A stretch of 53,407 bases of DNA from Planctomycetales bacterium (GCA_030631085.1 DAOVLV010000001.1:1-53407), one strand, 5' to 3'; shown: positions 2,195-52,956, counted from the stretch's first letter. Notes: generated from the letters alone by a model not told the origin. Numbers and translations are program-made.

Positions 2195-2196
2195 AG

Positions 2197-22863: not shown

Positions 22864-22867
22864 ATCC

Positions 22868-24312: not shown

Positions 24313-24329
24313 TATTCCGGTCTTTCCAC

Positions 24330-32913: not shown

Positions 32914-33032
32914 ATGGATACTGAGGGATTCGCCCCATCTGGCTTCGCGGACGCTACGGTCCAGGCAGATTCGGGAACTTTCTCTTCGTACAGCCGTCTA
33001 ATGGGGTAATGGGCAAAGGGAAGGATCACATA

Positions 33033-35465: not shown

Positions 35466-35484
35466 TACAGCCGGGCAGGTTCTG

Positions 35485-35648
35485 CCCAACACCTCCCTTG
35501 CCATCAGAGGCCGAGCGGATTACCATCTTCGCGTCCCTTCAATATGAGGATGACTTCAATGATCTCTCGCGTGCACAGTTCTATTTTACAGGGTATCGAC
35601 GCCGTTGCCGGCGAGGTCGAAGCCGACGTCGCTCGTGGCGGGCTGGGC
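35485..35648 (+). repeat. 164-bp direct repeat, copy 2 (attached to the comM body)
   Basis: See copy 1. Confidence 0.9.
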
Positions 35649-36290
35649 GAGTTGAAACTCGTAGGCCTGGCGGACACTGCCGTCAAGGAATCCGTCTCGC
35701 GCATCCAGGCTGCACTTCGCAACAGCGGATACCGCTGGCCCGGACCTAAAGTAACAATAAATCTCGCACCGGCCGATGTGAAGAAAGACTCGGCTGCGTT
35801 CGATTTGCCGATTGCCCTGGCTGTCATGCAGGCAGGCGGGATGTTCGCCAGCGAGACGTGCGACGATTTTCTCGTCGTCGGAGAACTCGCCCTGGACGGA
35901 CGCGTCCGAGCGGTCAAAGGCGCGCTGGCCACAGCAATGCTCGCACGCCGGTTGGAGAAGCGCGGGTTAATTTGCCCGGCTGACAATGCCGCCGAAGCCG
36001 CCGTCGTCGAAGGAATAGAAGTCATACCGGTAAGTTTCCTCACCGAAGCTGTCGGGTTCCTGACCGGCGAATTGTCGATTGAACCGGCTGACGTGGACCT
36101 TGGAGAGATTTTCAAGACTGCCAGTCGGTACGAGGTTGATTTCGCCGACGTTCGCGGGCAGGAATCGGCCAAGCGGGCATTGACCGTCGCAGCCGCGGGG
36201 CATCACAATATATTAATGATAGGACCGCCGGGAGCGGGTAAGACCATGCTGGCCAAGCGGATACCAATGCTTTTTGTAATTACAATATAA
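35544..36290 (+). pseudogene. comM: comM/yifB (Mg-chelatase-like AAA+ competence protein), N-terminal part, interrupted after Walker A
   Basis: Lon-like N-domain, [15 protein letters not shown], then MLFVITI-stop from island DNA. The likely true start is the ATG at 35559 (MISRVHS). Confidence 0.85.
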
Positions 36291-36463
36291 CCCTTCCGAC
36301 TGGTATGCTGGACCATTTAGTCGGCGTGGCATAGCACCGCATAGATTTTGTGTAGGCGCAAACGAGGGGCGTAGTATAATGTCAGTCAAATTGTCCGGTA
36401 GCATAGCCGGGCAGACATTATCTGGTATTTCAGAGTGTGGGCTTGGAAATCAAGGAGTTCGTA

Positions 36464-36928
36464 ATGACGGATAACGACAATTCCCAAAAAAGAGAATCAG
36501 ACTCGTCAAAAACCGGAGAGCATCTACCTGTCTTATCAAATAAACAGTTCATCCAACTTGGCAGCAATATCGCTCATGTGGACTTGACGGGGCTAACAGA
36601 ACAACAGATTCAAGAACTCAAGGCCAAGCACGCTAATACGATGATCGAGACGAACAAGAGGGCTGCTGAACTTGTCACCGATGTCAAGATATTGAGGGAA
36701 TCGTTGAGCACAATGGCGGGTGCGGCTAACGAGGTTGCCTCTCAAGAAGGGCAGTCGATTACCATCACACAGCGGCAAAAGAATGCTCTTGGGAATACGG
36801 AAATCATCATCGGGAATACGGATGCTGCTCAGAGAGGAAAACTAGGCCGCGACACGACAATGATCTGGTTTGGCCTAGCGATAGTGATCATCATCGCCAT
36901 AGTGATAATCGCTGTAACTCGCGGGTAG
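36464..36928 (+). CDS. Tail-anchored coiled-coil membrane protein, unknown function
   Basis: ATG at 36464 with AAGGAG 8 nt upstream. C-terminal TM MIWFGLAIVIIIAIVIIAV. Confidence 0.6.
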   Translation: MTDNDNSQKRESDSSKTGEHLPVLSNKQFIQLGSNIAHVDLTGLTEQQIQELKAKHANTMIETNKRAAELVTDVKILRESLSTMAGAANEVASQEGQSITITQRQKNALGNTEIIIGNTDAAQRGKLGRDTTMIWFGLAIVIIIAIVIIAVTRG

Positions 36929-36935
36929 ATATATC

Positions 36936-37238
36936 ATGCGTAAGTTCACAGTGGAGATCACAGAATCTACTGATATTGTGGCCACCCTAGGTAGGCTGAA
37001 GGGCGACTGTCTTTCTCACACTACATCACAGGACGGTCTGGAGGGCTTCCTCCATCAAGCCGAGACTGTTATTCATAACTTCACAGATCGGGGCAAAGAG
37101 GTAGCAGCAATCGGTGGTCAATTCAGGGCTTCGCGGACGCTCAAAAATCCTGACTACAAGATCGTCATCAACGCGGTCTTTGGTTGTGGGCCTCCGTCGC
37201 TGCTTGGCAAGTTGCGTTCGCTCTTTACTCGTCGGTGA
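36936..37238 (+). CDS. Hypothetical protein (100 aa)
   Basis: ORF track entry. 7-nt gap after the previous gene. Confidence 0.5.
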   Translation: MRKFTVEITESTDIVATLGRLKGDCLSHTTSQDGLEGFLHQAETVIHNFTDRGKEVAAIGGQFRASRTLKNPDYKIVINAVFGCGPPSLLGKLRSLFTRR

Positions 37239-37249
37239 GGAAGACACGG

Positions 37250-38065
37250 ATGGCACGTCGTTACGGTTACAACTCCCGCAATTATGGCTATGAGCGAGCA
37301 ATGCAACACATTCGTGAGGCAGAAGAGTTGTCGATGGAATTGGGCGGAACGGATGAGGATGTCAAACAGTACTTCTTCTCCCTGTCGGGTCAAGACCTAA
37401 AATCCATCCTTGATGCTTACGAAGCACAGAATGGATATGATGCACGTGAGTATGCTGAAAAAACCATGTGGAAGTGGCAGTCTGGCCGCGTGAAGATGAG
37501 TGGCTTGGTTGCTGGTCGGCTATTTGGGCTACTGCCACCCCGGATGCCGTTTCAGGTGAAGTACAATCTTGTCAGCACACTGTGGGAGAAGTACAGCCCC
37601 CGCTCAATCAAGCGAATCCGAATCGGTCCTGATGCACAGGTCCAGGAGATTGCTTCTGCCGTCGAATCACACCTTCTTGAGGCTGTGGTGCACTACAAGA
37701 TCCCCGACCCTCTTGAACGAAGATTCCATTGGCTATCGTCTGGGGATGTTGATGTTCAGCAACAACTGCTAAATCATTTCCTCGATATTGAGAGATCGCT
37801 TATCGTCAAGGGGACGCGGGAACGGCTGCCCGTGTTGCTAAAGCATCTTCGTCAGCATGGAGCAATCACACAAAGGCTCAGCCATAAGATCAAGATCGGC
37901 GAGCACCAACTCGAACTATACTTCGACCCTAAAGCGAGCGGACTTCAGTTCGAGGACCCCACGGCTATTCGCCTGTCGAAACATTCCGATCGGGATGTGG
38001 GATGTATGATAATGACCATAATCATATTTGTGATTATCATAATAATTGCCATCATGTCCTGGTGA
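37250..38065 (+). CDS. Tail-anchored membrane protein (271 aa), unknown function
   Basis: ATG at 37250 with GAGGAAG upstream. C-terminal TM CMIMTIIIFVIIIIIAIM. Confidence 0.6.
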   Translation: MARRYGYNSRNYGYERAMQHIREAEELSMELGGTDEDVKQYFFSLSGQDLKSILDAYEAQNGYDAREYAEKTMWKWQSGRVKMSGLVAGRLFGLLPPRMPFQVKYNLVSTLWEKYSPRSIKRIRIGPDAQVQEIASAVESHLLEAVVHYKIPDPLERRFHWLSSGDVDVQQQLLNHFLDIERSLIVKGTRERLPVLLKHLRQHGAITQRLSHKIKIGEHQLELYFDPKASGLQFEDPTAIRLSKHSDRDVGCMIMTIIIFVIIIIIAIMSW

Positions 38066-38761
38066 GAGTGTCGGCAATCCGCGAAAGGGCTTGATCCACG
38101 AAACGGGCTGTGTAGTCGGGATTGTAGTTGGCTGCTGGCCTTGCCATATTCCGGCCTTGCTCACCTTGGCCTTTTGCTCCACCTCCAAGTATTCCTCTAC
38201 GCGGCTAAACGGATATTTCGGATAGGCTCTAGCCAAGCCTTCACTTATCATCACCAGCCCAAAGTCCCGACCATCCGGTAATTCGATATAGACTAGCAAG
38301 CGTTTGTAAGTACCCCACTTCCCATGCTTCGGGTCCGGGTCGTATTGAATCTTGACGGTTTTGTCTTGTAGCAATTCTTTCGCACGGGCTGACGCTTCGG
38401 GGCCGAATGGCTGCACAGGCTTGAAGGGGTGAACCGTTTCCGGCGTATCAATACCTACGATGCGAACCTTGAGCGGGCCAGTGTCGGTGTCTATCTGGAT
38501 AGTGTCGCCATCCGTTACTGCAATGACTTTATGCAGACTGTTATCAGGCGGGGCAATTCGCTGCTTGACGCTGAGCGGTTGCTTTTGAAGTGGGGCCGGT
38601 TGCTCTTGGGGCTTTGGTGTGGGTTCTATATGCCGTGCTTGCTCAAGTTCCCGAACCCGCTCCGACAAAATGATTACACGGAAAGATGAAAACAGGACGC
38701 CCGCCGTGAGTAAGGACAAACACAATACCAAGGCTATATTCTTTCGCATAGGGCGGCTCAT
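37916..38761 (-). CDS. Membrane-anchored thermonuclease (SNase-like)
   Basis: N-terminal TM NIALVLCLSLLTAGVLFSSF. VTDGDTIQIDTD..VRIVGIDTPE..WGTYKRLLVYI. The 3' end overlaps the convergent gene by 150 nt. Confidence 0.8.
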   Translation of the reverse strand: MSRPMRKNIALVLCLSLLTAGVLFSSFRVIILSERVRELEQARHIEPTPKPQEQPAPLQKQPLSVKQRIAPPDNSLHKVIAVTDGDTIQIDTDTGPLKVRIVGIDTPETVHPFKPVQPFGPEASARAKELLQDKTVKIQYDPDPKHGKWGTYKRLLVYIELPDGRDFGLVMISEGLARAYPKYPFSRVEEYLEVEQKAKVSKAGIWQGQQPTTIPTTQPVSWIKPFRGLPTLSPGHDGNYYDNHKYDYGHYHTSHIPIGMFRQANSRGVLELKSARFRVEV

Positions 38762-39066
38762 CTAGGGGGATTGCAAACACTACACGGGCGGTAACGTTTC
38801 TTGGCTTCGCTCAGGGGCATCGGGATTTTCGACTTACTCAAATACCGACAGCCTGCACGATGATAGCACTTGCCACTCCGTGTAACATAGACAGTAATCT
38901 CTTGGGTTCCAGAATCCGAATTATCCTCTTGTTGATCGGTGCCTCTTACCGATGGCGTGTTGGACGATCCGCTCTGATCTTCGCTCCGTAATCCATAATA
39001 AAGACCGGCTCCGATCAGTGAAGCACAGACAACAGCGACGATTGGCCAAACGAGTTTGTTTTGCAT
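38758..39066 (-). CDS. Small membrane protein with C-terminal Cys/His 'sunset'-type metal-binding motif
   Basis: TM WPIVAVVCASLIGAGLYYGL. ..VYVTRSGKCYHRAGCRYL...YRPCSVCNP. Confidence 0.6.
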   Translation of the reverse strand: MQNKLVWPIVAVVCASLIGAGLYYGLRSEDQSGSSNTPSVRGTDQQEDNSDSGTQEITVYVTRSGKCYHRAGCRYLSKSKIPMPLSEAKKRYRPCSVCNPPR

Positions 39067-39205
39067 TATCTATCCCCTTTCCCCGACCAATATGCCGGTA
39101 GGGTCATTGTTGCACGTGAAACTGCCAAGGTCAAGAAATAGCACCTTGACCAAGGTGTTGCATCGAGGTAGCCTGCCGGGTGCGCAGATACAAAAGGGAA
39201 AGAAT

Positions 39206-39970
39206 GTGAGCACGAAAGACAAAAGCCTAATCATCGTTGTGCTGGTCTTGGTATGCGTGGCGGTCATAATTTGGGGCCATCACCGATTGGAATTGCTTCT
39301 CTTGGTGGCGTTCCTAGCACCTCTTACCGTCATTCACGTAGGCTCCATGGCTCTAGTGAGCACCTGTTGTTGGGGCATAGCCATCGAACGCCTATCTATC
39401 TTCTACGGAGGTCCGTTGTGCCGCTTTAACGTCAGAGGTATTCCCATCGAGATCGGTTACTTACCCATAGGCGGCTCAATAACATTCCGGCGTTACGACG
39501 ATGGTACAACCTCCAACGATGGCTTTAGGAACTATGACCACTTTCACCCATGGCAACGGTTGGTGATAATTCTGAGCGGGCCTTCGCTGCTTCTTCTTTT
39601 GGGCTGCGCGCTGATCGGGAGCAAGAGTCTTGTTGAAACCGTGCAAAGGTTCTACCCGACCTTCGTGGCGGGAACGATGTCTCCTGGTAGCGATGGCGTG
39701 AGCACATTAGCGGCTTACCTGAGTCTATTAGAGCATGGTAATTATCAGATTGCCTTCGGACTTCTTGCAGTTGTCCTAGCCGTGCTGAACCTATTGCCAC
39801 TCCCAACCATGAATGGGGGAGAGGCATTGATGGAACTCACTCAGATGTTGAACAGGCGTAGGTTCGCGCCTAAGATGGTCGTGGCATTGCGGGTTGTTTC
39901 GATAGTAATCCACTGTGTCATCGCAGCCGCATGGGCATTTTCGCTGATCCTCTTGCTGTTTTTCCATTGA
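39206..39970 (+). CDS. M50 (site-2 protease)-like membrane protein with degenerate active site
   Basis: RseP-like ..IERLSIFYGGPL..IGYLPIGGSITF.. and NLLPLPTMNGG. The HExxH position reads HVGSM and the LDG Asp is Asn. Start is the GTG at 39206 or the ATG at 39092. Confidence 0.55.
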   Translation: MSTKDKSLIIVVLVLVCVAVIIWGHHRLELLLLVAFLAPLTVIHVGSMALVSTCCWGIAIERLSIFYGGPLCRFNVRGIPIEIGYLPIGGSITFRRYDDGTTSNDGFRNYDHFHPWQRLVIILSGPSLLLLLGCALIGSKSLVETVQRFYPTFVAGTMSPGSDGVSTLAAYLSLLEHGNYQIAFGLLAVVLAVLNLLPLPTMNGGEALMELTQMLNRRRFAPKMVVALRVVSIVIHCVIAAAWAFSLILLLFFH

Positions 39971-40023
39971 CCGGCAGGACTTGTGATAGGCTCTGCCGGG
40001 TTTTTGTATTCATTCCCGAAGCC

Positions 40024-40551
40024 TTACACCTCTGTATATTGTGCAGTTCCCGCCATCGAGAAACCACGCAACGAAGAATCCGCAACTTTTTTAAATACCT
40101 CAGGCGGTACACTGACAGTGGCCACCCAGCAACCCGCCGATATTTTTTCGCCCCTATAAGTAATTTCCGAATCCGTTACAAAACTTTCGACCACTCGACA
40201 GGTAGTATCGTGTTCATGCTGGAGTTTAACAATTCCACCGTTCGCTAACCAACTGGCACTACCTTTTTTCAGTTCCTCGAAATCGGAAATATAGTCGTTC
40301 TGGGCGTCGGTGTTTTCCGGGTTGCCCAAACAATAAACGCAGCCCGATAATTCGTGCATCTCGCCATTTTTCCGTATGTCGAAGAATCCGCCGCCCGACT
40401 TCTCAAATTCTATTTCGTTATCATCGTCAATTTCTAAAACGATACCCGCATCGGCGAAGATATATTTCAAAACCTCGTTGGTCGTATTGCATCCCGGAAT
40501 ATCGACATATCCCTCTGCATCGCTGGTCAATTCTAAAGTTGTATTTGTCAT
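40024..40551 (-). CDS. XkdF-like (phage-associated, protease-like) protein
   Basis: C-terminal half ..LQHEHDTTCRVVESFVTD..AGCWVATVSVPPEVFKKV..LRGFSMAGTA resembles the XkdF family pattern. Confidence 0.45.
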   Translation of the reverse strand: MTNTTLELTSDAEGYVDIPGCNTTNEVLKYIFADAGIVLEIDDDNEIEFEKSGGGFFDIRKNGEMHELSGCVYCLGNPENTDAQNDYISDFEELKKGSASWLANGGIVKLQHEHDTTCRVVESFVTDSEITYRGEKISAGCWVATVSVPPEVFKKVADSSLRGFSMAGTAQYTEV

Positions 40552-40568
40552 AATTTATTTCCCCTAAT

Positions 40569-40724
40569 TTAATTCGCCGGATCGCCCCGGCCTGTCAATC
40601 GCTCAAACGTCTCGGATGCTTCTTCGCTATCCCAAGTTTTTATTTCCACGCCGGATCGAAACACTCGAAGCCGACAACAATCCCGGCGTAGTTCCAACTC
40701 ATTATTTTTTTGTATAGTCTTCAT
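40569..40724 (-). CDS. Possible small ORF (51 aa)
   Basis: Own translation: MKTIQKNNELELRRDCCRLRVFRSGVEIKTWDSEEASETFERLTGRGDPAN. Sits just upstream of the XkdF-like gene. Confidence 0.3.
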   Translation of the reverse strand: MKTIQKNNELELRRDCCRLRVFRSGVEIKTWDSEEASETFERLTGRGDPAN

Positions 40725-40733
40725 ATAATTATC

Positions 40734-40750
40734 TATACGAAATTCGTATA
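40734..40750. promoter_or_regulatory. 17-bp palindrome TATACGAAATTCGTATA in an AT-rich promoter region
   Basis: Self-complementary around the central base. 10 nt upstream of the small ORF start. Confidence 0.45.
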
Positions 40751-41008
40751 ATTGGTTTGTATATCTCTAACGCACTCAAACTTTCAACACGTATCAAAGT
40801 ACCTATATGCCTTAAAAGTTGCTTACAACGTATCCTGCAAAGCCCTGCACAGTGATATAAGGTAGTTCGCTAACCTGTTATATTCGGCATTTTGTCCGTC
40901 TGCTGGTATATTGACATTCTTGGTGTATTTCACCGCTTAAAAAAACAGGAGGCTCGGCATTTTCTGATTGCCAAGTCTCCTTTCAATTTTGATAATTTGT
41001 ATCTTGTC

Positions 41009-41620
41009 TTACTTGACCGCCTCAATAATTTTATGCACGGTAGGCCAACTCAATTCCTCTGCCCTTGCGATAGCGGCTTTGCTGATACCCTTGTCGTACA
41101 TATCCAGTATTCGGTTGATCCGTCTTGTACTCACCATTGACCAACCTTTTTGACTTCCACCCCATTTTTTGCCCGCTGCTTTGGCTACCTCGATACCGGC
41201 CTTTTGTCTTTGACGCCTTACGGCATTTTCAAACTCGGCGAACACTGCCAATATCCCGGCTATCATTTTGCCGCTGATGCTGTCAAGATCGACGCCCTCC
41301 GTTACCGATACCAGCCGGATACCCCTTTTGTGCATCCTGTCGAACAGGTTAGCGGCGTCTTTGAGGGAACGACTCAACCTATCCAGTCGCCAACAGATAA
41401 CGGCACTGACCTTGCCCTTGTCGATAGCCTGTTGTAGTTTTTTCCATTCTGGCCTGTTGTTAGTTGTGCCACTAGCCTTGTCGGAATACCACTTTAGGTT
41501 TTCTATCCCGCTGGCCTTCGCCCATGCCCTTATCGCCTTACGTTGCAGCCTGTCATTTTGCTCTACCGTGCTGCATCTCACGTAGGCTGCTGTAATGTTT
41601 CCCGTCTTTTCTTTCGCCAT
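41009..41620 (-). CDS. Small serine recombinase (resolvase/invertase) with C-terminal HTH
   Basis: AAYVRCSTVEQN (catalytic Ser), ..VICWRLDRLSRS.., ..FAEFENAVRRQRQKAGI.., C-terminus ..ISKAAIARAEELSWPTVHKI. AAGGAG RBS. Confidence 0.85.
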   Translation of the reverse strand: MAKEKTGNITAAYVRCSTVEQNDRLQRKAIRAWAKASGIENLKWYSDKASGTTNNRPEWKKLQQAIDKGKVSAVICWRLDRLSRSLKDAANLFDRMHKRGIRLVSVTEGVDLDSISGKMIAGILAVFAEFENAVRRQRQKAGIEVAKAAGKKWGGSQKGWSMVSTRRINRILDMYDKGISKAAIARAEELSWPTVHKIIEAVK

Positions 41621-41813
41621 GATATGCTCCTTTCGGTTGATAGCCTGTATCACAGCGTTTATTATAACCCTAAATTGTCTTGTGTAAAAGATATTTTATA
41701 GGTTTTGCATAAATTATCTTTCGTGTGCTCTATCATATTCCCTTGCAATAACGGCTTTTTGGCCTTTTTCCGCACGCCAGTTTCAAACGACATGACTTTT
41801 TAGGGTTTTGATT

Positions 41814-42767
41814 CTATCCGATCTGGCCTCCAAAACCTTTGTCCGGGTCTAAAGACTTCCAACAGGAATCGCCGCCAGACGCTATCACACCGCCAACGGA
41901 GGAAAATTCGTTCCTACGAATCGGAAGTGTGGTAGGTGTTATCATTACTTTTCGTAATCCGGCCTCTATCAAGTCAAGCCCGCATTTTGGACATTCATTC
42001 AAGTTCCCGGATACCTCGAAACCGCATCGACATTTTACAGGCTGGCCGATATTCGATAATGCGGACTCGGCGGAAGTGCTGGAAAAGGTAACAGCATCCC
42101 GCCTGTCGCCCGCTTCGTTTGGTATAGGTATCTGGTCATGCTCGGTAGGTTCGTCCTGTACGGCTAATCCTGCAACGTCCTCGGTGGTGTTTTGAGGTGG
42201 TCTAGGCACGTTGCTGATGATGTTGATAATTTTGTCGTCGCTTCCTTCACCTTTGCTTTCCGATAACCGCTCCAACTGACTTAATAATTGACTAATTGCC
42301 GCAATGGAATCGGGCTTGGCTTTGGCTGCCAGTCGTTTGATAGCCCGGCGGAGTTCCTGCTTTAATTCTGATAAAGATACCTCGGTTTGTTCATCGTCCC
42401 CGGCCCCTTCTGGCTCTTGTGATCTGTTGCCGCGTCCGGGTCCGCCGGGGTTATTTTTGCAGAATTTTCCATCCGGTCCATGTAAGGGATGTTTTTCTTC
42501 AATGTTTATAATATCTTCGTTAGGCGTGTCGGAATTATTAGGTGTCGAAAATGCTTTATCCCCCTCTTGTCTTTTTTTATCTTTACTACCTTCTACCTTT
42601 GAAGTTTCATCGTTTTCTTTGTCGTTTTTCCTACCGTCTTTTTCTACGTTTTTCCATTCACGTCTTTTTGATGTTCTAGGATGTTTCATATTGCTTTTTC
42701 CCCCATACATTCCCCGTCGGATGCCAGCATCGAAAGTTGTTTCTGGTTGCTGTTCTTTTCTTTCCAA
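41814..42767 (-). CDS. Charged hypothetical protein with C-terminal zinc ribbon
   Basis: CRCGFEVSGNLNECPKCG. Lys/Glu-rich N-terminal half. Confidence 0.5.
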   Translation of the reverse strand: MERKEQQPETTFDAGIRRGMYGGKSNMKHPRTSKRREWKNVEKDGRKNDKENDETSKVEGSKDKKRQEGDKAFSTPNNSDTPNEDIINIEEKHPLHGPDGKFCKNNPGGPGRGNRSQEPEGAGDDEQTEVSLSELKQELRRAIKRLAAKAKPDSIAAISQLLSQLERLSESKGEGSDDKIINIISNVPRPPQNTTEDVAGLAVQDEPTEHDQIPIPNEAGDRRDAVTFSSTSAESALSNIGQPVKCRCGFEVSGNLNECPKCGLDLIEAGLRKVMITPTTLPIRRNEFSSVGGVIASGGDSCWKSLDPDKGFGGQIG

Positions 42768-42937
42768 ACTTTAGGGCTGCTGTTGGCGTGTATCCCCGTA
42801 GTCGGTGGATCGCTCGCCCCTCACGTATCGCTTGGCGATCCAGTCTGGTCAAACCGTTTTGATCTTCCATTTTTGCTTCCCCCTGTTTCCCCATTTTTTC
42901 AGTTCATCAAAATTATAAAATATAAAAAGCAATAAAT

Positions 42938-43037
42938 AAGTGGGTAAGTGGTTCAAGTGGTTAGAAACGACTTTTTGCCTTAAGCGCGCTCTTAAGGGTA
43001 AAACCTGTTTTCAGTCAATTATGCCACTTACCCACTT
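42938..43037. repeat. Iteron-like AAGTGG hexamers (3 direct, 2 inverted) around the CTTAAG-CGCGC-TCTTAAG palindrome: candidate island origin
   Basis: AAGTGG at 42938, 42946 and 42955. CCACTT at 43024 and 43032. 14-bp arms AAGTGGGTAAGTGG/CCACTTACCCACTT. Confidence 0.45.
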
Positions 43038-45318
43038 ACTTTCCGGCGTGCCCCAACGGTTCATCGGTTATATGCGCCCATTCAGGCTTCAGTCCGATAC
43101 CCGCAAAGGCCATTCTTTGCTTTCCGCTAATAACTAACTGCTTGCTTGTAATGTTTTCGATCCGGCGTATCTGTTCGTACAAAACTTTCCGACTCATCGT
43201 GTATCTCTCGCCCGCCTCTTTCGCCCACCACAAATAAGCGTGGTACATATCCGGCTGGGCTATTTTTTTATCCTTGCCGGTTTCGCAATACATATCCAAA
43301 AATTCGGCAAGTTTGTTTTCTTCATCCTGATATTGCCTTGTCGCGTGCTTGACGGATTCCGGCGAAATTAACCCATACTGCTGCCACAATAAGCAACCCT
43401 CCACGGCCCACCTTAAAACGCCCGGCCATTCTTTTTTCAGTTTATCGAGCAGTTGATGATCCTGTTTTTCCAGTGCTACGGTAACGCCGAAGTCGATGAG
43501 CCTGATACGCCGCCAAATAGCATGGGATGATTCACTGATATTGGGCTTGTTGTTTGTAACCAAAACAGTTTTACAAATTCGCGGAAACTCAAAGTAGTCC
43601 CTGTGCATATACCGTCCCTTGAGAGTCGCGTCGCCGGTCAGTTCCTTTACCCGCTGCACTTTCATACGCCCGCCTTGCTCGGTTTCGGATGCCACGATAA
43701 GACGTTTTCCGAAAAGGTCGGCTATCTCGGTCGGGTGCTCATCAAACCTTTTCACAGTCAACAGGTGTGGTGGTGCTTTGCTTGCATAGTCGCCCATGTA
43801 GCCGAGAACCGTATCAAGGAACGTGCTCTTTCCGTTCGCCCCCGTCCCGTAAAAGATAGGTAGTATCTGCTCCGATATATCTCCAGTGAGAAAAATACCA
43901 GTTAGCCGCTGGAGGTAGTCTATCAACTCATCATCACCATCCATTATTTCGCCGATGAATTTTAGCCATAGCGAACTTTTTATATTGGGGTCATATTCGA
44001 CCGGGGCCAGTTTCGTGATAAAGTCAGTGGGCCTGTGTTTTCCAATTTCGCCCGTGCGTAGATCAACGGTTCCGTTCTGACAATTGAACAACCAAGTGTT
44101 TGCATCGAAAGACGCTGCGGGCGTTGCAAGTTCGCCTTTGGCTAACTCCATGAGTGCTTTAATCCGTCGCTCATTTTCAGAACTTGCTGCCCACTTTGCT
44201 GTTTTCTGTCGCTTGGTATCGTCGGGTTCATGCGCCGCGATGGTGTACCACGTCCGTACCGTCCGCTTGGCGAATTGCTGCACCTGTCGAATAGTATCTT
44301 TTTTCCACCGTGATCCGTCCCATATGAGCCACTTGCCCCATTGTTCACACCAAAGCACCTCGTCCCTGTACAATGCTGCGAAAAGTTCCGCGTTACCCGT
44401 GTCGGTCTGATTAAAACTGCTGTGATGTTCTGCCGGATACCGCTCCATCCCTTGAGCAATGGTTTCGATCTCACTGTCCGGTATGCTAGACGGGTCTTCG
44501 CACAGAGAGTTTTTTGAACCGAGTAAAACCTTACCAATGGTCTCCGTCTCCATACCCAGTTGCCCGCGCAAGAAACCCGCCAGCCGTGTAAGCCCGTCGT
44601 TGCGTTCGCCGACTGGTATTTTTTCATTCGTTCCGTCCGTTTCGGTTAGTGTTTCAACGTCTTGTTTTTTACTCTCAATTAATTTGGCAAGTAACCATTT
44701 TGGGGCTACCAAAACGTCTTGTGTATCTGGCGTACCGCGATACCAGTCGTAATGTCTGTTGCTTACGTGCAGGCTGTACGGCGCAACGACATAGCCGCCG
44801 TCGGCTTTCACGTCAACGCCCTTACCAAGAGCGTTTGCACGGCTCTTTACATTCCCGCCAGGATGCCGAAAGTAAAAGTGCGTTCCACCACTGCCCGTTA
44901 TTGACTGCAAGGTCTTTGGCAGTCGGCCATTGTTGTTTTCGATTTCGTCTAGTGTATCTTCACCACCATTACGCGGATCAATATCGAGCACCATAAGGCC
45001 GGATACTTTACCTGTCGCTATACCGATGTTTGCGTTGGGCCATTTTTCCCACCATTTTTTTATATCCCTCTGATCGGTGGTAGCGTCTTTCAGTCCGTGC
45101 ATAGTTCGCGGATGCTTGCCGGGGCTGTTGCAGCCACGTTTTCCACAAGCACATTTTCCGTCGTCTATCTCATAGATCGGAAGTACCTGCCAGCCTTGTT
45201 GTGCATATTCTAAAGCCACCTTAACTTTGCTTTGCCCTATTCGTTCTGCCCTGATTCTTTCAAATTCACTCTCAATAAAACCAAGTCGCCTCTGCTTTTT
45301 CTCACTTACATTTACCAT
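43036..45318 (-). CDS. Bifunctional primase-polymerase (PrimPol) / D5-P4-type helicase
   Basis: ..GWQVLPIYEI..CACGKRGCNSPGKHP.., ..LMVLDIDPRNGG.., Walker A GTGANGKSTF. 760 aa. Confidence 0.85.
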   Translation of the reverse strand: MVNVSEKKQRRLGFIESEFERIRAERIGQSKVKVALEYAQQGWQVLPIYEIDDGKCACGKRGCNSPGKHPRTMHGLKDATTDQRDIKKWWEKWPNANIGIATGKVSGLMVLDIDPRNGGEDTLDEIENNNGRLPKTLQSITGSGGTHFYFRHPGGNVKSRANALGKGVDVKADGGYVVAPYSLHVSNRHYDWYRGTPDTQDVLVAPKWLLAKLIESKKQDVETLTETDGTNEKIPVGERNDGLTRLAGFLRGQLGMETETIGKVLLGSKNSLCEDPSSIPDSEIETIAQGMERYPAEHHSSFNQTDTGNAELFAALYRDEVLWCEQWGKWLIWDGSRWKKDTIRQVQQFAKRTVRTWYTIAAHEPDDTKRQKTAKWAASSENERRIKALMELAKGELATPAASFDANTWLFNCQNGTVDLRTGEIGKHRPTDFITKLAPVEYDPNIKSSLWLKFIGEIMDGDDELIDYLQRLTGIFLTGDISEQILPIFYGTGANGKSTFLDTVLGYMGDYASKAPPHLLTVKRFDEHPTEIADLFGKRLIVASETEQGGRMKVQRVKELTGDATLKGRYMHRDYFEFPRICKTVLVTNNKPNISESSHAIWRRIRLIDFGVTVALEKQDHQLLDKLKKEWPGVLRWAVEGCLLWQQYGLISPESVKHATRQYQDEENKLAEFLDMYCETGKDKKIAQPDMYHAYLWWAKEAGERYTMSRKVLYEQIRRIENITSKQLVISGKQRMAFAGIGLKPEWAHITDEPLGHAGK

Positions 45319-45339
45319 TTTCTTTTCTCCACGAAAATT

Positions 45340-45393
45340 TTAGCCACGGGCGAAAGCCAAGCCGTGGAGTGCTCACTCCCGACCCGTGGCTAA
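45340..45393. promoter_or_regulatory. Nested hairpin between the 86-aa gene and the primase gene
   Basis: TTAGCCACGGG...CCCGTGGCTAA (11 bp) enclosing GGAGTG-CT-CACTCC. TTTTCTCCACG direct repeat on both sides. Confidence 0.45.
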
Positions 45394-45456
45394 TACTGAC
45401 TGTTGCTATTTTTCTCCACGTCATTTTGTTCATCAATTTATTATATTGAGTTGCTC

Positions 45457-45717
45457 TTAATTTTTTGAAAATTGATATGCCGAAAAATGCTGTCGTAACC
45501 TCTCGATAAGCAATTCCACCGGCAATTTTAATCGCCGTGCCACCACTGCCAATTTCTTACCTCTCATAATTAAATTGCAGGCCGCTTGATATTTCTTCGA
45601 CAGGCTTTGCATATCCATTTCAAAATGTAAATCATTGGAAAAGTCTGGTGTGTCCTTCTGATAAAGAATTCGACAGGTCGGCTGTTCATCATTTTTATTC
45701 ATTTTGTAATTCCCCAT
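45457..45717 (-). CDS. Hypothetical protein (86 aa)
   Basis: ORF track entry. Confidence 0.45.
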   Translation of the reverse strand: MGNYKMNKNDEQPTCRILYQKDTPDFSNDLHFEMDMQSLSKKYQAACNLIMRGKKLAVVARRLKLPVELLIERLRQHFSAYQFSKN

Positions 45718-45807
45718 TTTGGTTTGGCAGAGCAGAGCGGGGACGGTCAGAAACCCAGAAGAAAAGGAAAGAACCGCCCCCGCCTACAGGAGAAGCACTC
45801 ACGAAGA

Positions 45808-46239
45808 TTAATAACTAGACGTACTCGACCACTTCGGGTCGGAGCCGTGTGCAATTAAGACCGCCGTTATTTTGGAATCACCTTCGCCGTCGTACTCGAT
45901 ATTGATGAATCGCTTTGTGCCGATCACCAAGAAAACGTAAAGTCCATCCGCCGTTATCGAGAACGTATCATCCGAGACTGTTACCTCCGACGCGCTCATG
46001 CCGATGTTTTGTATAAGTTGGCATCGGTTCGACGAACTGGCCGAAAAGCCTGTCTCGTGGCTTGAATGCAAAGAGACATTACTGACGCCGGTCGTTCCCT
46101 TATCGACGGACAAAACCAATGTTGCATCGCCGTCATTTTGAATTGAATCAAATTCCGTTCCGCTAATGTCCGAAGAATTTGCTGCTGTAACGTTGTTCAA
46201 CAAAATCGCCGGGTTGTTTCCTGCTAAAATTTCTCTCAT
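45808..46239 (-). CDS. Hypothetical beta-rich protein (143 aa)
   Basis: ORF track entry. Confidence 0.5.
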   Translation of the reverse strand: MREILAGNNPAILLNNVTAANSSDISGTEFDSIQNDGDATLVLSVDKGTTGVSNVSLHSSHETGFSASSSNRCQLIQNIGMSASEVTVSDDTFSITADGLYVFLVIGTKRFINIEYDGEGDSKITAVLIAHGSDPKWSSTSSY

Positions 46240-46292
46240 TTTTTCATTCCTTAAAAAATTCCTAAACTACATTAATTCCTAAAATTAAATTC

Positions 46293-46517
46293 CTAAATAC
46301 TTACTTTCCGAAATAGAGGTCTAGCCCCCGACGCTTTTGCTCTCTCGCTATCTGGCCCAAAAATGTCATACTCCTTTTGTGTAACCCGGAAAGGCGGGTC
46401 GGCTTCTAGGCTTGGCCCAGCACCGTGGAAACTTTCACCAGTTCGCTTGCACTTCCAATAGCACATCGGCTCCATAGCCACCAAAATTCCGCCATCAACT
46501 TCCAATTCTTTTCCCAT
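46293..46517 (-). CDS. Hypothetical protein (74 aa)
   Basis: ORF track entry. Confidence 0.45.
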   Translation of the reverse strand: MGKELEVDGGILVAMEPMCYWKCKRTGESFHGAGPSLEADPPFRVTQKEYDIFGPDSERAKASGARPLFRKVSI

Positions 46518-46528
46518 TTTTTACTCTC

Positions 46529-47494
46529 CTAAATTGAGGGCATCGCCCAATAAATTTCCTGTGGTTTCACCCCGCACGATTCGTCGGCGGAAGTGTAAAA
46601 ACTTTGTAGTGATTCTCTTAAAGCCTTTTTTGTGTTAAGTAGTTCGGCATCGTCAAACCGACGGTCGTCGAGGTTTGATAAGACCTCTTGTATCTGCCGG
46701 ACTTTCCCCCAGAGCGACTTGCCTTTGGCAGTATTTCGGAATGACTTGACCGCCTCTCGATGCTCTGAAATATATTGCTCTCGCTCCTTGGCGGCCTTGT
46801 CCTTTTCCGTCTTGACTTGTTCGCGTTGCTCGGATGTTGATTCGTAGTTAAAGGTGTCCCGGACGGAATCAACAAAGGTCTCGATTTGCACTTTTGTAAT
46901 AAGCCCCCGAATGCCCGCCGGGTCGTAGGCGTGATCGGAACGAACTGTCAGCCCTGCCCGATTCAGTTCCTTGATTTCGGTTTGGTAGTTCTTGTAGAGT
47001 TCAAAAGTTTTGCTCAATTCCTTGCCCATCGCTTCCGCAGCATCGACGGCTTTTTCAAAATGCTTTTGCTGACGATTTCCGAGTTTCTTTAGTTTGCCCG
47101 CACGGTCGTACAAGGTACAAAGCCGTTCGACGATTTCTGGTAAGGCTTCGACAAACGCCTCTGACTGCCACTGAAGGATTTCTAATTCGTTTTTACGCTC
47201 GACAATTTCGTCCAATTGTGGCGGGCGTACTGGCCGACCTCGCGGGCTGCCGCCGTCCCGTATTCGGTCGTAGGTGTGATGCAGGACATGCTCTTTGGCC
47301 TCCGCACGTTTAGATTTCTCAAAGTCGGGGAAGGTCTTTATGCCGTCGGTGTACTTATACCACTGCCGACATCCTGGGCGAATCTTGTCGGGGTGGTTCT
47401 TTACAAACTGCCGCAAGGCATCCCCGGCCTTCCGCTGGTCGAGCAATTCGTCGATGAGTTTTTCGGGTGGTACTGTAAATTGTTTTTCTGTCAT
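46529..47494 (-). CDS. Hypothetical helical protein (321 aa)
   Basis: ORF track entry. First gene of the leftward island operon. Confidence 0.55.
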   Translation of the reverse strand: MTEKQFTVPPEKLIDELLDQRKAGDALRQFVKNHPDKIRPGCRQWYKYTDGIKTFPDFEKSKRAEAKEHVLHHTYDRIRDGGSPRGRPVRPPQLDEIVERKNELEILQWQSEAFVEALPEIVERLCTLYDRAGKLKKLGNRQQKHFEKAVDAAEAMGKELSKTFELYKNYQTEIKELNRAGLTVRSDHAYDPAGIRGLITKVQIETFVDSVRDTFNYESTSEQREQVKTEKDKAAKEREQYISEHREAVKSFRNTAKGKSLWGKVRQIQEVLSNLDDRRFDDAELLNTKKALRESLQSFYTSADESCGVKPQEIYWAMPSI

Positions 47495-47826
47495 TTTTCT
47501 ATATCTCCATCTTAAAAAGAAAAGGCGAAACCATCGGCCTTCTGGCCAACAGGTCCGCCTTCTTTGTCGAGCAAATTCCGTTTGGGAATTTCTGACCCAG
47601 CAAGGTCTAATTTTTTAAAAGAAGGGTTGAATTACCCGCCCTTCTTAAAGGATTATATAGTTTTCGTCAGAAAAACTTGTTAATTTTTTACACGATTTCG
47701 ACGATATTGAGCAAGTTTTACTACCAATAACCGCGTTTCGCCCTTTGTTTATATGGCTTTTCTCGACGCATAAATAAATTTTATTTTTATCTTTGTTTTC
47801 GATGATTTGGCACTATAATTGCTAAT

Positions 47827-47921
47827 GCGATGAATATACGATACTCCCAAAATGGCTTTGCCCTTCGGTTCGGCGAATCACTTCCTATGGTTGTGTATTC
47901 ATCGCAACCGGGCCGAAGGGC
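47827..47921. promoter_or_regulatory. Interleaved inverted repeats (A-B-A'-B') upstream of the recombinase gene
   Basis: A GCGATGAATA 47827-36 / A' TATTCATCGC 47896-905. B GCCCTTCGG 47860-68 / B' CCGAAGGGC 47913-21. Confidence 0.4.
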
Positions 47922-47999
47922 TTCAATTTCTACGCTGTACTATCACGAGTATTAATAAGTTTTTTCGCCGCCACCGGTATAATAACTAGGAGTAAAGCG

Positions 48000-50003
48000 A
48001 TGATCAAAACGCAGAAATTAAACAAGACCAGTTGCCTTACCGCTTGGTTGCTGACACGAGTCAGTTCCGAAGGTCAAGAGGAGGGCGAAGGCCCAGACGC
48101 CCAACTCCATAGCATCACACTGTCCGCTGAACGAGAAGGGTACACACCAAAGAATTGTAAGGTGGTGCAGGAAACAATTAGCGGATTCACCGAAAGAATC
48201 GAAGACCGTCCTTTATTGTCGAAAGCGTTAGATAGTGCAAAGGCCGGCGACTGTTTCTTTTGGGACAAGTCTGACCGTATGGCCCGCGACCGTATGGCGA
48301 AGGAAAGCATCATTCGCTTGATGCAACGTAAGGGACTGCGGTGTTTCGTGGGGGGGCTAGAGTTCGTCCTGTCGGATGAAACGCAAGTAGCCTTCCTATG
48401 TATGCAAGGAATCTTCGACCACCTCGCCGGAAGACAGTTAGTCGCCCGCATGGTGGACGGCAAAGCATCGCGTCGCCGTAAGGGGTTCATAATTGATTCG
48501 CAGGCCTCTTACGGTTTTGACTACATTAAAAATGAAGACCCGGCCTTGCGGACATTCCTCATTAACAAACAGGAAGCCAACGTGCTCCGCGAAATCATAT
48601 CTCGCGTTATCGACCTTAATCAGTCGATGAATCAAATAGCCAACTGGCTGAATGACAGTAGCATCCCGCCGAAGTCAGCCAAGCGGTGGAGTTCTGCAAG
48701 TCTGTGCTATATTTTGCGAAACCCCATCTTGACCGGCAAGGTAATGTCTGGACGCAACCGATACGAAAAAGACTCGGAAACTGGAAAGACAAAACGTATA
48801 ACGACACCACGTAGCGAATGGAAAGTTTTCAAGGAACTGCCTGACAGAATTATTGATGAAGATACATTCAACAGACTGCAACAAATTCTTGACTCTCGGA
48901 TACCGGCTCATCGACGTAAAGATAAAAAACCATCGGGGACTATGCAAAGCCGGAACGTCAAGGAGAATGACCAACGGATATTGAGGGACTTGTTATTTTG
49001 TAATTCGTGTGCCCGCTATGAAGGTGGAACCATACGCAGGTCAAAGATGGTTCCGGCACAAGGAGCCAGCCCCAAAGATGCTTTTTATGCTTGCTACTGG
49101 CGGCGAACTTCCGACAACAAGCGTAAAATGGCAGATAGGGAAAAATGCCGAATGCCATACATCCCGGCTAGTGAGGTTGAAGGGCTGGCAATGGAATACG
49201 TCAAGCGGATATTCCTTGACCCGAAATCAGTTTTGGAAAGCCTATTGACCGACAAGTCAATACAAGGTGAACTCATAGCGGCTGAAAAGCAACTAGCGTC
49301 CACCGAATCCAAACTTCACAAAACCAACCGTCGAATCGAAAAGACCCTTGACCAGATGCTCGACACGGAATCGGAACAGCGGAAACGCTCTCTTGATGAA
49401 AGCCTTGCTCGATATGAAAAAGAACGGGACGACTTGGAGGCCTACAAGTCCGGTCAGATGCGGGATGTTGAACGGTTACACCAGATGGTAGGGCGGGCCG
49501 ATCTGTTGAAAGATGCTGCTGACGACCTTGCAGGTATCAGGGCGGTGGCTGAAAAGGTGATAGACGAATTGAACACGGAACAGAAAAAACGATTGTTGAG
49601 AATAATTGCAAACCGAGCACAGTTTGCCATATCATTCCTTAAAGGCCGGGCAGGATATGTACTTGATGAATCCGTTGCCGCCGGTAAGTACGAAAGCAGG
49701 ATCGAGGCCGATGCCGATGGAGAGAATCCGATTGTCAATACCTACAAAGAAATCGGCAAAGCCCATTTTTCATTCCGCCCAAAGTCGCACGTACCAAAAT
49801 TCAGCGGCTGGCGGCTTGACCTTGCAGGAAATATCAAACCGTCGGAAATCATTGAAGGGCTGGCCCAGTTTGCCCGCGAAATTAGACCAAAGGTTTTCGC
49901 AAAGTACGCGAAAGACCAAGAGAAACATCCTCACAAGTCATATAAGAGTTACAAAACTGGCCCCGTCGATATTACCGCCCCTGACGCCGGACGAATCGCT
50001 TGA
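48000..50003 (+). CDS. Large serine recombinase (integrase of the island)
   Basis: ..LLTRVSSEGQ.. catalytic Ser, recombinase domain, Cys cluster CNSCARYEGG..YACYW, long coiled coil. TATAAT 47978-83 and AGGAG RBS. The last 12 codons lie in comM DNA. Confidence 0.9.
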   Translation: MIKTQKLNKTSCLTAWLLTRVSSEGQEEGEGPDAQLHSITLSAEREGYTPKNCKVVQETISGFTERIEDRPLLSKALDSAKAGDCFFWDKSDRMARDRMAKESIIRLMQRKGLRCFVGGLEFVLSDETQVAFLCMQGIFDHLAGRQLVARMVDGKASRRRKGFIIDSQASYGFDYIKNEDPALRTFLINKQEANVLREIISRVIDLNQSMNQIANWLNDSSIPPKSAKRWSSASLCYILRNPILTGKVMSGRNRYEKDSETGKTKRITTPRSEWKVFKELPDRIIDEDTFNRLQQILDSRIPAHRRKDKKPSGTMQSRNVKENDQRILRDLLFCNSCARYEGGTIRRSKMVPAQGASPKDAFYACYWRRTSDNKRKMADREKCRMPYIPASEVEGLAMEYVKRIFLDPKSVLESLLTDKSIQGELIAAEKQLASTESKLHKTNRRIEKTLDQMLDTESEQRKRSLDESLARYEKERDDLEAYKSGQMRDVERLHQMVGRADLLKDAADDLAGIRAVAEKVIDELNTEQKKRLLRIIANRAQFAISFLKGRAGYVLDESVAAGKYESRIEADADGENPIVNTYKEIGKAHFSFRPKSHVPKFSGWRLDLAGNIKPSEIIEGLAQFAREIRPKVFAKYAKDQEKHPHKSYKSYKTGPVDITAPDAGRIA

Positions 50004-50856
50004 GACGACACGGATTTATTCCGCACGCGGGTTGCTCGCGCCGGCCCAATCGCTGATGGCGATCAGGCCGGTGCGCACGCCGCACCATTCGACTTCGTCG
50101 GCTGCGCTGGTCGGCGGCGGCATCATCCCCCAGCCGGGGGAAATCTCGCTCGCGCACCACGGCGTGCTGTTCCTCGACGAACTGCCGGAATTCACGCGCG
50201 CCACGCTGGAGATGATCCGCCAGCCGCTGGAAGACCGATGGGTAACGATTCCGCGCGTTCATTCGACGCTGAAATTCCCAGCCGCGATTATGCTGGTCGC
50301 GGCGATGAACCCGTGTCCGTGTGGATATTTCACTGATCCGAAGCGGCAATGCAAGTGTTCGCCGGTGGTGATTGAGCGGTATTTATCGCGGATTTCCGGG
50401 CCTTTGATTGACAGGATTGACATTCACATCGAGGTCCCGCCGGTGCCTTGGCGACAACTCCGAGGCGACACCGACGGCCTGTCCAGCGCGGACATGCGTG
50501 AGCAAGTCCTAGCCGCCCGCCAGGTTCAGCGCAACCGTTTTTCTGTTTCTTCTTCCCAAGTCCCTAGTCCCACTCGTCAGGGCGGAGCCTGCCGTAGCCC
50601 GGAGTCCCTAGTCCCTTCATCCACTACGACAAATGCCACCATGTCGAGCAAGCAGGTCCGCCAATTCTGCAAACTCGACTCTGCCGGCGAGACGTTGCTC
50701 AAACAGGCAATGACCGAACTAGGCCTCTCAGCCCGCGCGCACGACAAGGTCCTACGCATCGCCCGCACCATTGCCGATATCGAAGGTGAAGAAAACATCC
50801 AATCGCATCATTTGGCAGAAGCGATACAATATCGAAAACTGGACAGAAGATTGTAG
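49966..50856 (+). pseudogene. comM: comM/yifB C-terminal part
   Basis: SILPPLTPDESLETTRIYS.., Walker B HHGVLFLDELPEF, ..PCPCGY..CKC.., ..LSARAHDKVLRIARTIADIEG..HLAEAIQYR. Confidence 0.85.
50557..50617. repeat. Heptamer-flanked GC-core element inserted in frame in comM
   Basis: caagtccctagtccc-actcgtcagggcggagcctgccgtagcccg-gagtccctagtccc. Encodes SQVPSPTRQGGACRSPESLVPS. Confidence 0.7.
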
Positions 50857-52258: not shown

Positions 52259-52362
52259 CCTAAAGGCTGATGGCATGGTCGCGGTGTTTGTGACCACGTT
52301 TGTGTTCACCGGGGTCACAGCATCCGGCAAATCCAACCCGCCGAGTATAAAGGAAAAAGAAT

Positions 52363-52956
52363 ATGCTAGAGAATGAATTACACAGGGAAGAGAATATGAA
52401 ATTGCAGCTTATTAAAGATGCTCATACGTATTTGGAAGGGCGTATCAAGTTTGTTGATACTAAGGCAAGCTTTTTTATGGCAGTCCTGGGTGGTTTCTTT
52501 GCGATCATCGCTCTTTCGGCAAAAGAAATGTTATTATCAGTAGGTGCGAAAAGTGTGTCACCGACGATTGAGATTGGGTTTTACCTCCTGATGATCGTAA
52601 CCTTTCTTTTGGTGATCATAACGGTATGCTGTTTATTACAAACTATCCGACCCACAAGAAAATTTCTGCATATGACAATGGAGGTAAAACACACATCTGG
52701 CAAAGCACAGCATGTTATGTGGCCAAGTAAAGAAGGAGGTTGGCCCCAAGATCCAACGGATTTCGAAAAAAGAATTCAATCGCTTGATACGAATGGAATA
52801 TTAGCAAACTATGAGGAAACACTTTATGTGAGTCTTCAACTGATAAGGAATGTCTACAATCGTTATCGCGTTGCTGCTTTATTAATGAAATTTACCGTTG
52901 TGGTGAGCGGATCTCTTTTCTTCGCACTTCTTATTCTAAAACTGATAGGCGTCTAA
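52363..52956 (+). CDS. DUF5706/PycTM-like multi-TM protein
   Basis: ..LEGRIKFVDTKASFFMAVLGGFFAIIAL.., second TM IGFYLLMIVTFLLVIITVCCLL, C-terminal TM VVVSGSLFFALLILKLIGV. Confidence 0.5.
   Translation: MLENELHREENMKLQLIKDAHTYLEGRIKFVDTKASFFMAVLGGFFAIIALSAKEMLLSVGAKSVSPTIEIGFYLLMIVTFLLVIITVCCLLQTIRPTRKFLHMTMEVKHTSGKAQHVMWPSKEGGWPQDPTDFEKRIQSLDTNGILANYEETLYVSLQLIRNVYNRYRVAALLMKFTVVVSGSLFFALLILKLIGV

Follow-up and report, generated by a model that had tools for sequence, protein, structure and literature searches.

A mobile element in comM of a Phycisphaerae bacterium, very probably inserted at a CC core by its own large serine recombinase

In the window analysed here, a stretch of 53,407 nucleotides (DAOVLV010000001.1) from an uncultured Phycisphaerae bacterium (Planctomycetota), the reading frame of comM breaks off shortly after its Walker A motif and is taken up again 13.7 kb further on. 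What DNA lies between the two halves, what put it there, and does it ever leave? In Gram-negative bacteria, branch migration during natural transformation is the task of the helicase ComM, as shown in Vibrio and Acinetobacter (PMC6158740). We find that the gene is split by an island whose removal in silico restores it precisely, and that the island encodes a large serine recombinase (LSR) at its right end. This LSR has very probably inserted the island, as a mobile element, at a CC dinucleotide core.

The split comM gene and its rejoined product

The two halves of comM and the DNA between them are as follows.

35544-36265, plus strand: comM 5' fragment (YifB-family AAA+ helicase), with a Lon-like/ChlI N-domain and Walker A; when the element is integrated its frame ends at a stop codon at 36288-36290
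36266-49964: inserted element, 13,699 bp, with a GC content of 0.43-0.52 against about 0.60 in the flanks
49965-50856, plus strand: comM 3' fragment, residues 242-537, with Walker B, the sensor/Arg-finger region and Mg_chelatase_C; no start codon of its own at the junction

Read from 35544 on the plus strand, the 5' frame runs out of comM into MLFVITI and a stop that ends at 36290. In the public annotation of the NCBI contig this piece is a ChlI/Mg_chelatase product of 243 aa. Since orthologues align from residue 5-6, translation may in fact begin at the ATG at 35559. The 3' frame picks up at 49965/49966 with SILPPLTPDESLE / SILPPLTPDESLETTRIYS and closes at the stop codon 50854-50856. Excision in silico, joining 35544-36265 to 49965-50856, yields 1614 nt that encode 537 aa with no stop, so that the frame of an intact ComM is restored. 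The rejoined protein scores 573.7 bits against TIGR00368 (YifB family Mg chelatase-like AAA ATPase; NCBIfam; cutoff 362.4 bits), and its residues 10-435 match positions 1-425 of the family in one stretch, with no insertion or deletion at the join. It has the ChlI N-domain, AAA+ core and Mg_chelatase_C of a full-length YifB/ComM protein; the Pfam architecture in ComM orthologues is PF13541/PF01078/PF13335.

Related genomes carry the gene in one piece. Among 5.8 billion proteins searched, intact proteins from metagenome-assembled genomes (MAGs) of Planctomycetota/Phycisphaerae align with 99% of the rejoined ComM and are up to 89% identical to it, and in the five closest orthologues each half is 90-96% identical and residues 225-260 are free of gaps. 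The motif that follows Walker A, ...-[ST][IV]LPPLT, keeps the same spacing in 70 related genomes, and comM is uninterrupted in 80 of the 80 best related GTDB loci. The original prediction for this locus had held that an island interrupts the comM frame and that its deletion restores the spacing of the protein. Both claims are upheld by the frames, the rejoined 537-aa frame, the family match and the gap-free orthologue alignment, and the intact comM that it proposed to look for in relatives is present. Its placing of the break exactly after Walker A needs correction: the motif GPPGAGKT occupies residues 227-234, and the junction falls between P241 and S242, seven codons downstream.

The comM 3' frame also stays open for 120 codons back into the island (49606-49965, in the +1 frame of the LSR gene), from which a hybrid protein without Walker A might in principle be made. 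We rejected this candidate as probably due to chance, since open runs of at least 100 codons in alternative frames occur in island genes (3 of 206 runs).

The large serine recombinase and its deduced attachment sites

Two serine recombinase genes lie on the island, and the attachment sites can be read at its borders.

48000-50003, plus strand: large serine recombinase, 667 aa, at the right end and facing outward; PF07508 and PF00239
36236-36295, plus strand: attL, with a comM-derived left arm, CC at 36264-36265 and an island-derived right arm (AATGCTTTTTGTAATTACAATATAA)
49933-49994, plus strand: attR, with an island-derived left arm (..ATATAAGAGTTACAAAACTGGCC), CC at 49963-49964 and a comM-derived right arm
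41009-41653, minus strand: small serine recombinase, 203-214 aa, of the resolvase/invertase type with a helix-turn-helix; PF00239 136 bits and HTH_7

The 667-aa protein is, by its sequence and predicted structure, a true LSR, and the original prediction was right about its identity, position and orientation. The Resolvase domain (PF00239) scores 47.4 bits (Pfam cutoff 23.3), and the Recombinase domain (PF07508, residues 191-300) scores 71.9 bits (cutoff 21.1) and aligns with residues 152-308 of SPbeta integrase. The catalytic serine motif R-x-S-x-x-Q is present (R20/S22/Q26). In an alignment of the subfamily these residues, together with R70, R93 and R96, are invariant in the LSR and its ten nearest relatives, and the zinc-ribbon cysteines C334, C337, C365 and C383 are invariant in the subfamily; PF13408 matches the relatives but not the LSR itself. 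An AlphaFold (AF2) model built on the same alignment (mean pLDDT 77) has zinc-ribbon beta-hairpins at 332-353 and long coiled-coil helices at 418-522. Compared with the PDB by Foldseek, the model matches SPbeta integrase (9dxd/9dxh, E 1e-17), Bxb1 (6.6e-15) and PhiC31 (1.9e-13) over 498-587 aligned columns. The TM-scores of 0.2-0.4 are low, which is usual when several domains are joined by flexible linkers. The closest structure is that of SPbeta integrase, at an identity of only 16-19%. These domains, catalytic and cysteine residues and fold matches together identify the protein.

Its frame ends at 50003, 39 nt past the junction, and its last 13 codons are comM 3' DNA. The tail of the protein depends on the state of the element: in the integrated form it has 667 aa and ends in ...KTGPVDITAPDAGRIA, and in a circle it would have 677 aa and another tail (36266-36299). 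This tail is modelled with low confidence and is unconserved among relatives.

The LSR is very divergent. Its nearest relative is 36% identical, no other protein found in our searches exceeds that value, and of 1.84 billion representative proteins only 12 fall below 1e-30. Members of the subfamily have in common a further conserved stretch near the C-terminus, GWRL...G..P, at about residues 590-645. Targeting of comM does not appear to be a trait of this subfamily, and we rejected that idea: none of the four relatives whose gene contexts were checked adjoins comM, and one lies against a fragment of a URO-D-family gene. In this case (31% identical; ENA ERZ27254231 k141_765136, 1107-3393), the recombinase gene is followed 8 nt on by a 116-aa open reading frame (ORF) that matches only positions 245-344 of the 346 of the URO-D profile, and the arrangement reads as another gene-interrupting insertion with the same outward-facing, end-on layout in a different target. 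The contigs of two further relatives (ENA, Logan) break off no more than 49 nt and 9 nt from the stop codon of the recombinase gene, and these breaks just past the integrase may mark polymorphic junctions too.

Where exactly did the recombination take place? The only dinucleotide common to both junctions is CC (36264-36265 and 49963-49964). The best-supported borders are 36266-49964, one base to the left of the 36267-49965 given in the original prediction, and the empty site that it suggested for PCR, ...GATACC/GTCGAT, fits the revised borders. Joining the comM-derived arms gives attB, ...AAGCGGATA-CC-GTCGATATTACC... (sequence CGGGTAAGACCATGCTGGCCAAGCGGATACCGTCGATATTACCGCCCCTGACGCCGGACGA, core ...GCCAAGCGGATACCGTCGATATTACCGCC..., empty junction GCGGATACC|GTCGATATT), and joining the island-derived arms gives attP, ...GAGTTACAAAACTGGCC-CC-AATGCTTTTTGTAATTAC... 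(sequence ACAAGTCATATAAGAGTTACAAAACTGGCCCCAATGCTTTTTGTAATTACAATATAACCCTT, core ...GTTACAAAACTGGCCCCAATGCTTTTTGTAATTAC...). In attP, 16 of 30 positions match by dyad symmetry with the centre exactly on CC, and TTACAAAA stands in each arm. The 16 neighbouring centres (offsets of 1-8 bases) give 2-12 matches, and at least 16 matches are reached at only 0.095% of island positions (background 0.00095). The symmetry of attB is weak (8/29). A dyad-symmetric attP around a 2-bp core that is kept in both attL and attR is the architecture of LSR attachment sites. A proline codon that does not vary among relatives begins with this CC and would offer a recombinase a target that is conserved across hosts.

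These junctions also bear on whether anything other than the LSR could have created the arrangement. The 2 bp in common are all that the junctions share, with no 5-bp target duplication of the kind left by AbaR/Tn7-like insertion, and the scans of the island ORFs turned up neither a DDE nor a Tns-type gene. Insertion by a transposase is therefore hard to sustain, even though comM is a known target of Tn7-like AbaR elements in Acinetobacter (PMC11441513). The small serine recombinase, which the original prediction overlooked in calling the LSR the only integrase-type gene, is annotated publicly as a 203-aa protein and has weak similarity to the IS607 family, as an IS607-like insertion would have it; however, it sits mid-island, 4.7 kb and 8.3 kb from the ends, and the LSR gene overlaps attR. 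As for a chimera of the assembly, both junctions are base-for-base identical in the NCBI, ENA and Logan assemblies and the window. We consider it extremely improbable that a chimera, a transposase or the small recombinase accounts for the island, and the LSR would be the enzyme that made the insertion.

In the mechanism that we propose, a non-viral 13.7-kb integrative element would have entered the chromosomal comM by recombination between attP and attB, carried out by its own LSR. The enzyme would recognise about 50 bp of element DNA, with imperfect inverted arms containing TTACAAAA around CC, and in comM a target in which CC begins the invariant proline codon just downstream of Walker A. It would cut both sites at CC, rotate the half-sites and religate them, giving attL and attR with one CC each. 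The integrated element would then part Walker A from the rest of the AAA+ module, and ComM could not be made.

Island copies in public assemblies and an implied empty allele

Is the island fixed in its host? Besides the window, three other public assemblies contain it base for base, and all come from one sample (SAMN18200500 / SRR13892600). The NCBI MAG contig JAGLXD010000157.1 (Phycisphaerae bacterium GCA_023133135.1) corresponds to 32610-49992 of the window and differs from it by a single nucleotide (35759) over 16,957 shared bases, a sign of microdiversity among strains, or of differing consensus sequences, in the sample of origin. The ENA scaffold of 13,807 bp is exactly 36211-50017 of the window and, having no terminal overlap, is not a circle. 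The Logan contig of 13,757 bp ends at 49992, as does the NCBI contig; its start, 36236, was computed from its length. Counted from 36265|36266 and 49962|49963, the ENA contig extends beyond the island by 55 nt of comM flank on each side, and the Logan contig by 30 nt.

Logan contigs come from k=31 unitigs; the largest default k of metaSPAdes is 55, and its contigs include the k-mer at a branching vertex. Symmetric contig ends that would depend on k in this way are expected of a de Bruijn graph in which the flank has two continuations exactly at the junction. This implies a second allele that joins the comM flanks to DNA other than the island, most simply an uninterrupted comM. By this indirect evidence the element is polymorphic for presence and absence within the sample. 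The contig ends fit an empty site CC-G and not the CC-A that the borders 36267-49965 would have left. Excision and a never-infected sub-population could both produce them.

This second allele is also among the reasons why we find it distinctly unlikely that the island is a fixed, decaying remnant, with comM a plain pseudogene and no excision. At the DNA level even the nearest relatives reach only about 80% identity, whereas the flanks of the alternative allele match perfectly for at least 55 nt on either side, which places it in the population that carries the island. All four assemblies show the integrated form only, and neither the attP junction nor a directionality factor was found, which a remnant would explain; yet the LSR, the PrimPol-helicase gene described below and both comM halves are intact and undecayed, and the att arms retain their symmetry. 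In our reading of the island as a mobile element, excision would occur with the help of a directionality factor, and loss of ComM would lower transformation, presumably protecting the element from replacement by recombination with the empty allele. For the reversible switch of transformation put forward in the original prediction, the polymorphism is the one observation in favour of reversibility, and the effect on transformation is extrapolated from other phyla.

Several observations weigh against this reading. The empty allele is deduced from contig ends and was not seen directly: the exact attB junction, which the original prediction had proposed to look for, gave 0 matches in JGI metagenome contigs (searched with R at its ambiguous base), as did the island left end. 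The circular attP junction, the other one it had named, was found neither by exact search in IMG/VR (0 matches) nor at the contig ends; abundant circular attP would stop a contig inside the island, and since the contig does not stop there, the ends argue against it. No known directionality-factor family is present among the island ORFs in Pfam and PHROGs scans, and among recorded proteins a look-up returned no ComM C-fragment that begins at the junction. The element occurs in one sample only, with no independent insertion event, and the small serine recombinase might in principle play a part as well. To our knowledge, natural transformation is undocumented for this Phycisphaerae lineage, and non-competent bacteria too carry YifB homologues.

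Gene content, comparable elements and meaning

What kind of element is this? Apart from the two recombinases, the island contains the following.

36437-38065, plus strand: three orphan genes, of 154-163 aa, 100 aa (36936-37238) and 271 aa (37250-38065), with no Pfam, PHROG or PADLOC match; the 154-163-aa and 271-aa products have a C-terminal hydrophobic anchor (tail-anchored)
37916-38761, minus strand: membrane-anchored staphylococcal-nuclease-like protein, 281 aa; PF00565 76.9 bits; N-terminal anchor
38758-39066, minus strand: 102-aa membrane protein with a C-terminal Cys-rich motif; phrog_14556; upstream of the nuclease-like gene
39056-39970, plus strand: M50-family (site-2-type) membrane metalloprotease; PF02163 54.4 bits
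40024-40551, minus strand: XkdF-like serine-protease domain protein, 175 aa; PF14550 46.9 bits; phrog_3017 head maturation protease, E 1e-18
41814-42767, minus strand: 317-aa orphan of acidic/basic low complexity with a C-terminal CxC..CxxC zinc-ribbon-like motif; no family match
42934-43041: iteron-like palindrome, 108 bp, with 54-nt arms that are 72% complementary; at the 3' end of the PrimPol gene, before the next gene
43036-45318, minus strand: bifunctional PrimPol / D5_N / P4-type helicase replicase, 760 aa; PF09250 163 bits, PF08706 114 bits, PF19263
45457-47494, minus strand: leftward operon diverging from the LSR gene, with a 321-aa helical orphan (46529-47494), a 74-aa product, a 143-aa all-beta orphan (45808-46239) and an 81-86-aa possible helix-turn-helix protein
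47826-47906, plus strand: hairpin/palindrome with a stem of 17 bp; about 95 nt before the LSR start codon, within the 505 bp between the divergent genes

The right module runs leftward from the LSR gene to that of the XkdF-like protein and includes the replicase and the small recombinase; the left module encodes mostly membrane proteins. The replicase scores 274 bits against TIGR01613, and its nearest homologues are 45-50% identical. The palindrome at its 3' end contains four of the five AAGTGGKT motifs of the window and is a candidate replication origin or operator; the hairpin before the LSR gene (folding z = -3.3, no Rfam match) is a candidate regulatory site. Within the leftward operon no ORF has a reliable family match in Pfam, PHROGs and PADLOC scans, and the AF2 model of the 143-aa orphan (pLDDT 48) was not good enough to be searched for similar folds. 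Among defence genes, PADLOC gave for the cargo only the candidate 'SNc+LTD' for the nuclease-like protein (E 2e-24) and a weak AbiEii-like match. No tRNA or Rfam family lies within the island, and promoter and terminator scans were at chance level.

The XkdF-like protein is the sole gene product reminiscent of phage morphogenesis. Pfam and PHROGs scans of the island ORFs recognised no gene for a capsid, portal, terminase or tail, in agreement with the original prediction on capsid and terminase, and the island is therefore not a complete tailed phage. Its genes suggest instead an integrative, self-replicating element that is plasmid-like or satellite-like. Once excised, it would replicate by means of the PrimPol-helicase, probably from the adjacent iteron palindrome, and the small serine recombinase is probably a multimer resolvase.

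A phage satellite of the P4/PICI kind would use these genes differently: it would replicate by its PrimPol-helicase on induction of a helper and be packaged in helper capsids, comM being merely its attachment site. Like such satellites and like integrative plasmid-like elements, the island combines an integrase, a PrimPol/D5-type replicase and a putative origin with the lack of virion genes, and its divergent control region and XkdF-like protease domain would suit a satellite as well. A possible helper is even at hand, in the form of a tailed prophage 12 kb upstream on the same contig.

1 to about 24 kb (1-24404): tailed prophage, running off the left end of the window
3027-5285, minus strand: protease-capsid fusion
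5227-6843, minus strand: lambda-type portal
9371-11002, 18517-20067 and 20064-21200: three DNA methylases
10849-12984, minus strand: GpA-type large terminase
13307-14341, minus strand: tyrosine integrase, oddly in mid-element
14743-15774, minus strand: O-like replication initiator
21873-22934, minus strand: DUF5131
24329-24404: tRNA-Met

The prophage and the island, however, share no DNA of 16 nt or more, no cos/pac-like sequence was detected in common, and no structural or packaging protein is shared; the only protein they have in common is a weak staphylococcal-nuclease-like match that lies outside the prophage core. Genes for a small terminase, capsid-size control or interference were not recognised on the island, and nothing was seen that ties it to the co-resident prophage, although it may have another helper. 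In contrast to P4 and PICI, it has a serine rather than a tyrosine integrase, no helper-related genes or sequences were detected, and half of it is membrane, nuclease and protease cargo, which is untypical of known satellites. Scans of IMG/VR returned nothing for the LSR, and for PrimPol only a 37%-identical relative, and megablast detected no counterpart of the island in phage and plasmid collections. We thus regard the satellite as an unlikely explanation, and an integrative element that has no virion of its own as the better description.

Two stretches of the surrounding DNA are recorded here in their own right. The nuclease-like match, at 30349-30567 (31% over 83 aa to the island nuclease), sits in a stretch of lower GC content at 29-31.5 kb, between the prophage and host genes. 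Directly downstream of comM, another low-GC (0.43) stretch (50882-53407) encodes two proteins: one of 458 aa whose weak similarity to the ApeA N-terminal domain (E 6.6e-5) does not reach the Pfam cutoff, and a membrane protein of 197 aa that is PycTM-like (PADLOC E 2.5e-9). The stretch is possibly a small islet of defence genes; in relatives its place is taken by Zn-ribbon/HD-domain genes or an IS200 transposase.

Serine-integrase elements that interrupt genes are well known from Listeria, in which A118/phi10403S lies in comK, and from Bacillus, with SPbeta in spsM and skin in sigK. Their excision has been shown experimentally, is regulated by development or infection, and involves known directionality factors. 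Our island resembles them in its LSR at the border and in the precise restoration of the ORF, here in silico, and comK, too, is related to competence; unlike them, it has no recognised directionality factor.

Closer to hand are elements that enter the same gene. Durrant et al. (Nat Biotechnol 2022) described thousands of LSR elements, among which Mg-chelatase/ComM homologues are the target of 12.4% of site-specific LSRs (PMC10083194). Competence was the pathway most enriched among LSR targets, and disrupting it was proposed as a strategy to limit further horizontal transfer (PMC10083194). In the Wolbachia prophage WO, the serine recombinases of the sr1WO group likewise integrate into the Mg-chelatase gene of the host (PMC9203015). 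The novelty that the original prediction implied is low, as both LSR insertion into Mg-chelatase/ComM and the disruption of competence had already been published (PMC10083194; PMC9203015). Like the elements of Durrant et al. (PMC10083194), the island is a mobile element placed by an LSR inside the ComM/Mg-chelatase coding sequence. In contrast to that catalogue, which draws on isolate genomes, its host is uncultured, and its LSR has no relative above 36%, the closest relatives using other targets. With WO it shares the recombinase at one end of the element, the two halves of the target gene on either side and an attB made by joining the flanks; WO, however, is a complete tailed phage with structural genes, and the recombinases are not close relatives as far as tested.

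The AbaR/Tn6019-type islands of Acinetobacter also target comM, and protection from replacement has been proposed as the benefit (PMC11441513, PMC7508600); AbaR islands that disrupt the gene gain persistence from the transformation defect and insert by a Tn7-like mechanism (PMC11441513). They differ from our island, with its 2-bp core, serine integrase and no transposition genes found, in their 5-bp duplication and in their break position, near residue 286-293 of the alignment. Acetoanaerobium phage ANDSL2_ph1 (PP197248.1) offers another parallel, as the 3' end of its LSR gene overlaps comM-derived sequence. Its comM fragment (15550-17710 holding both genes) comprises residues 173-360, ends in AAMNPCPC and converges with the 546-aa LSR gene with an overlap of 41 nt. 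This arrangement points to an attachment site near comM residue 360 and suggests that the phage may bring a replacement piece of its comM target. In contrast to the island, ANDSL2_ph1 is a complete phage that carries a comM fragment, and its LSR is 21% identical.

A bolder picture can be drawn, which we think quite improbable. The island might represent an undescribed kind of capsid-less, self-replicating Planctomycetota element, marked by a divergent LSR with an extra C-terminal domain, a PrimPol-helicase replicon and a membrane nuclease/M50-protease module, which would toggle comM as a population-level switch of DNA uptake. Such an element might spread in membrane vesicles or hijack the prophage nearby, and DNA entering the cell might meet a second barrier in its secreted nuclease.

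Genes of the comM type are already the commonest known target of LSRs, and the island is one more example, which leaves the understanding of these systems unchanged. Its new aspects are the host phylum, a very divergent integrase whose att pair was deduced, an unusual gene content and the evidence for polymorphism. The attP/attB pair, resolved to the nucleotide for an integrase without close relatives, is a candidate orthogonal tool for genome engineering, and contig ends across differently built public assemblies can expose an empty-site allele without recourse to reads. For the biology of these bacteria, the habit of serine integrases of landing in comM now extends to an uncultured lineage of Planctomycetota, and this fits the idea that mobile elements protect themselves by crippling the recombination of incoming DNA.

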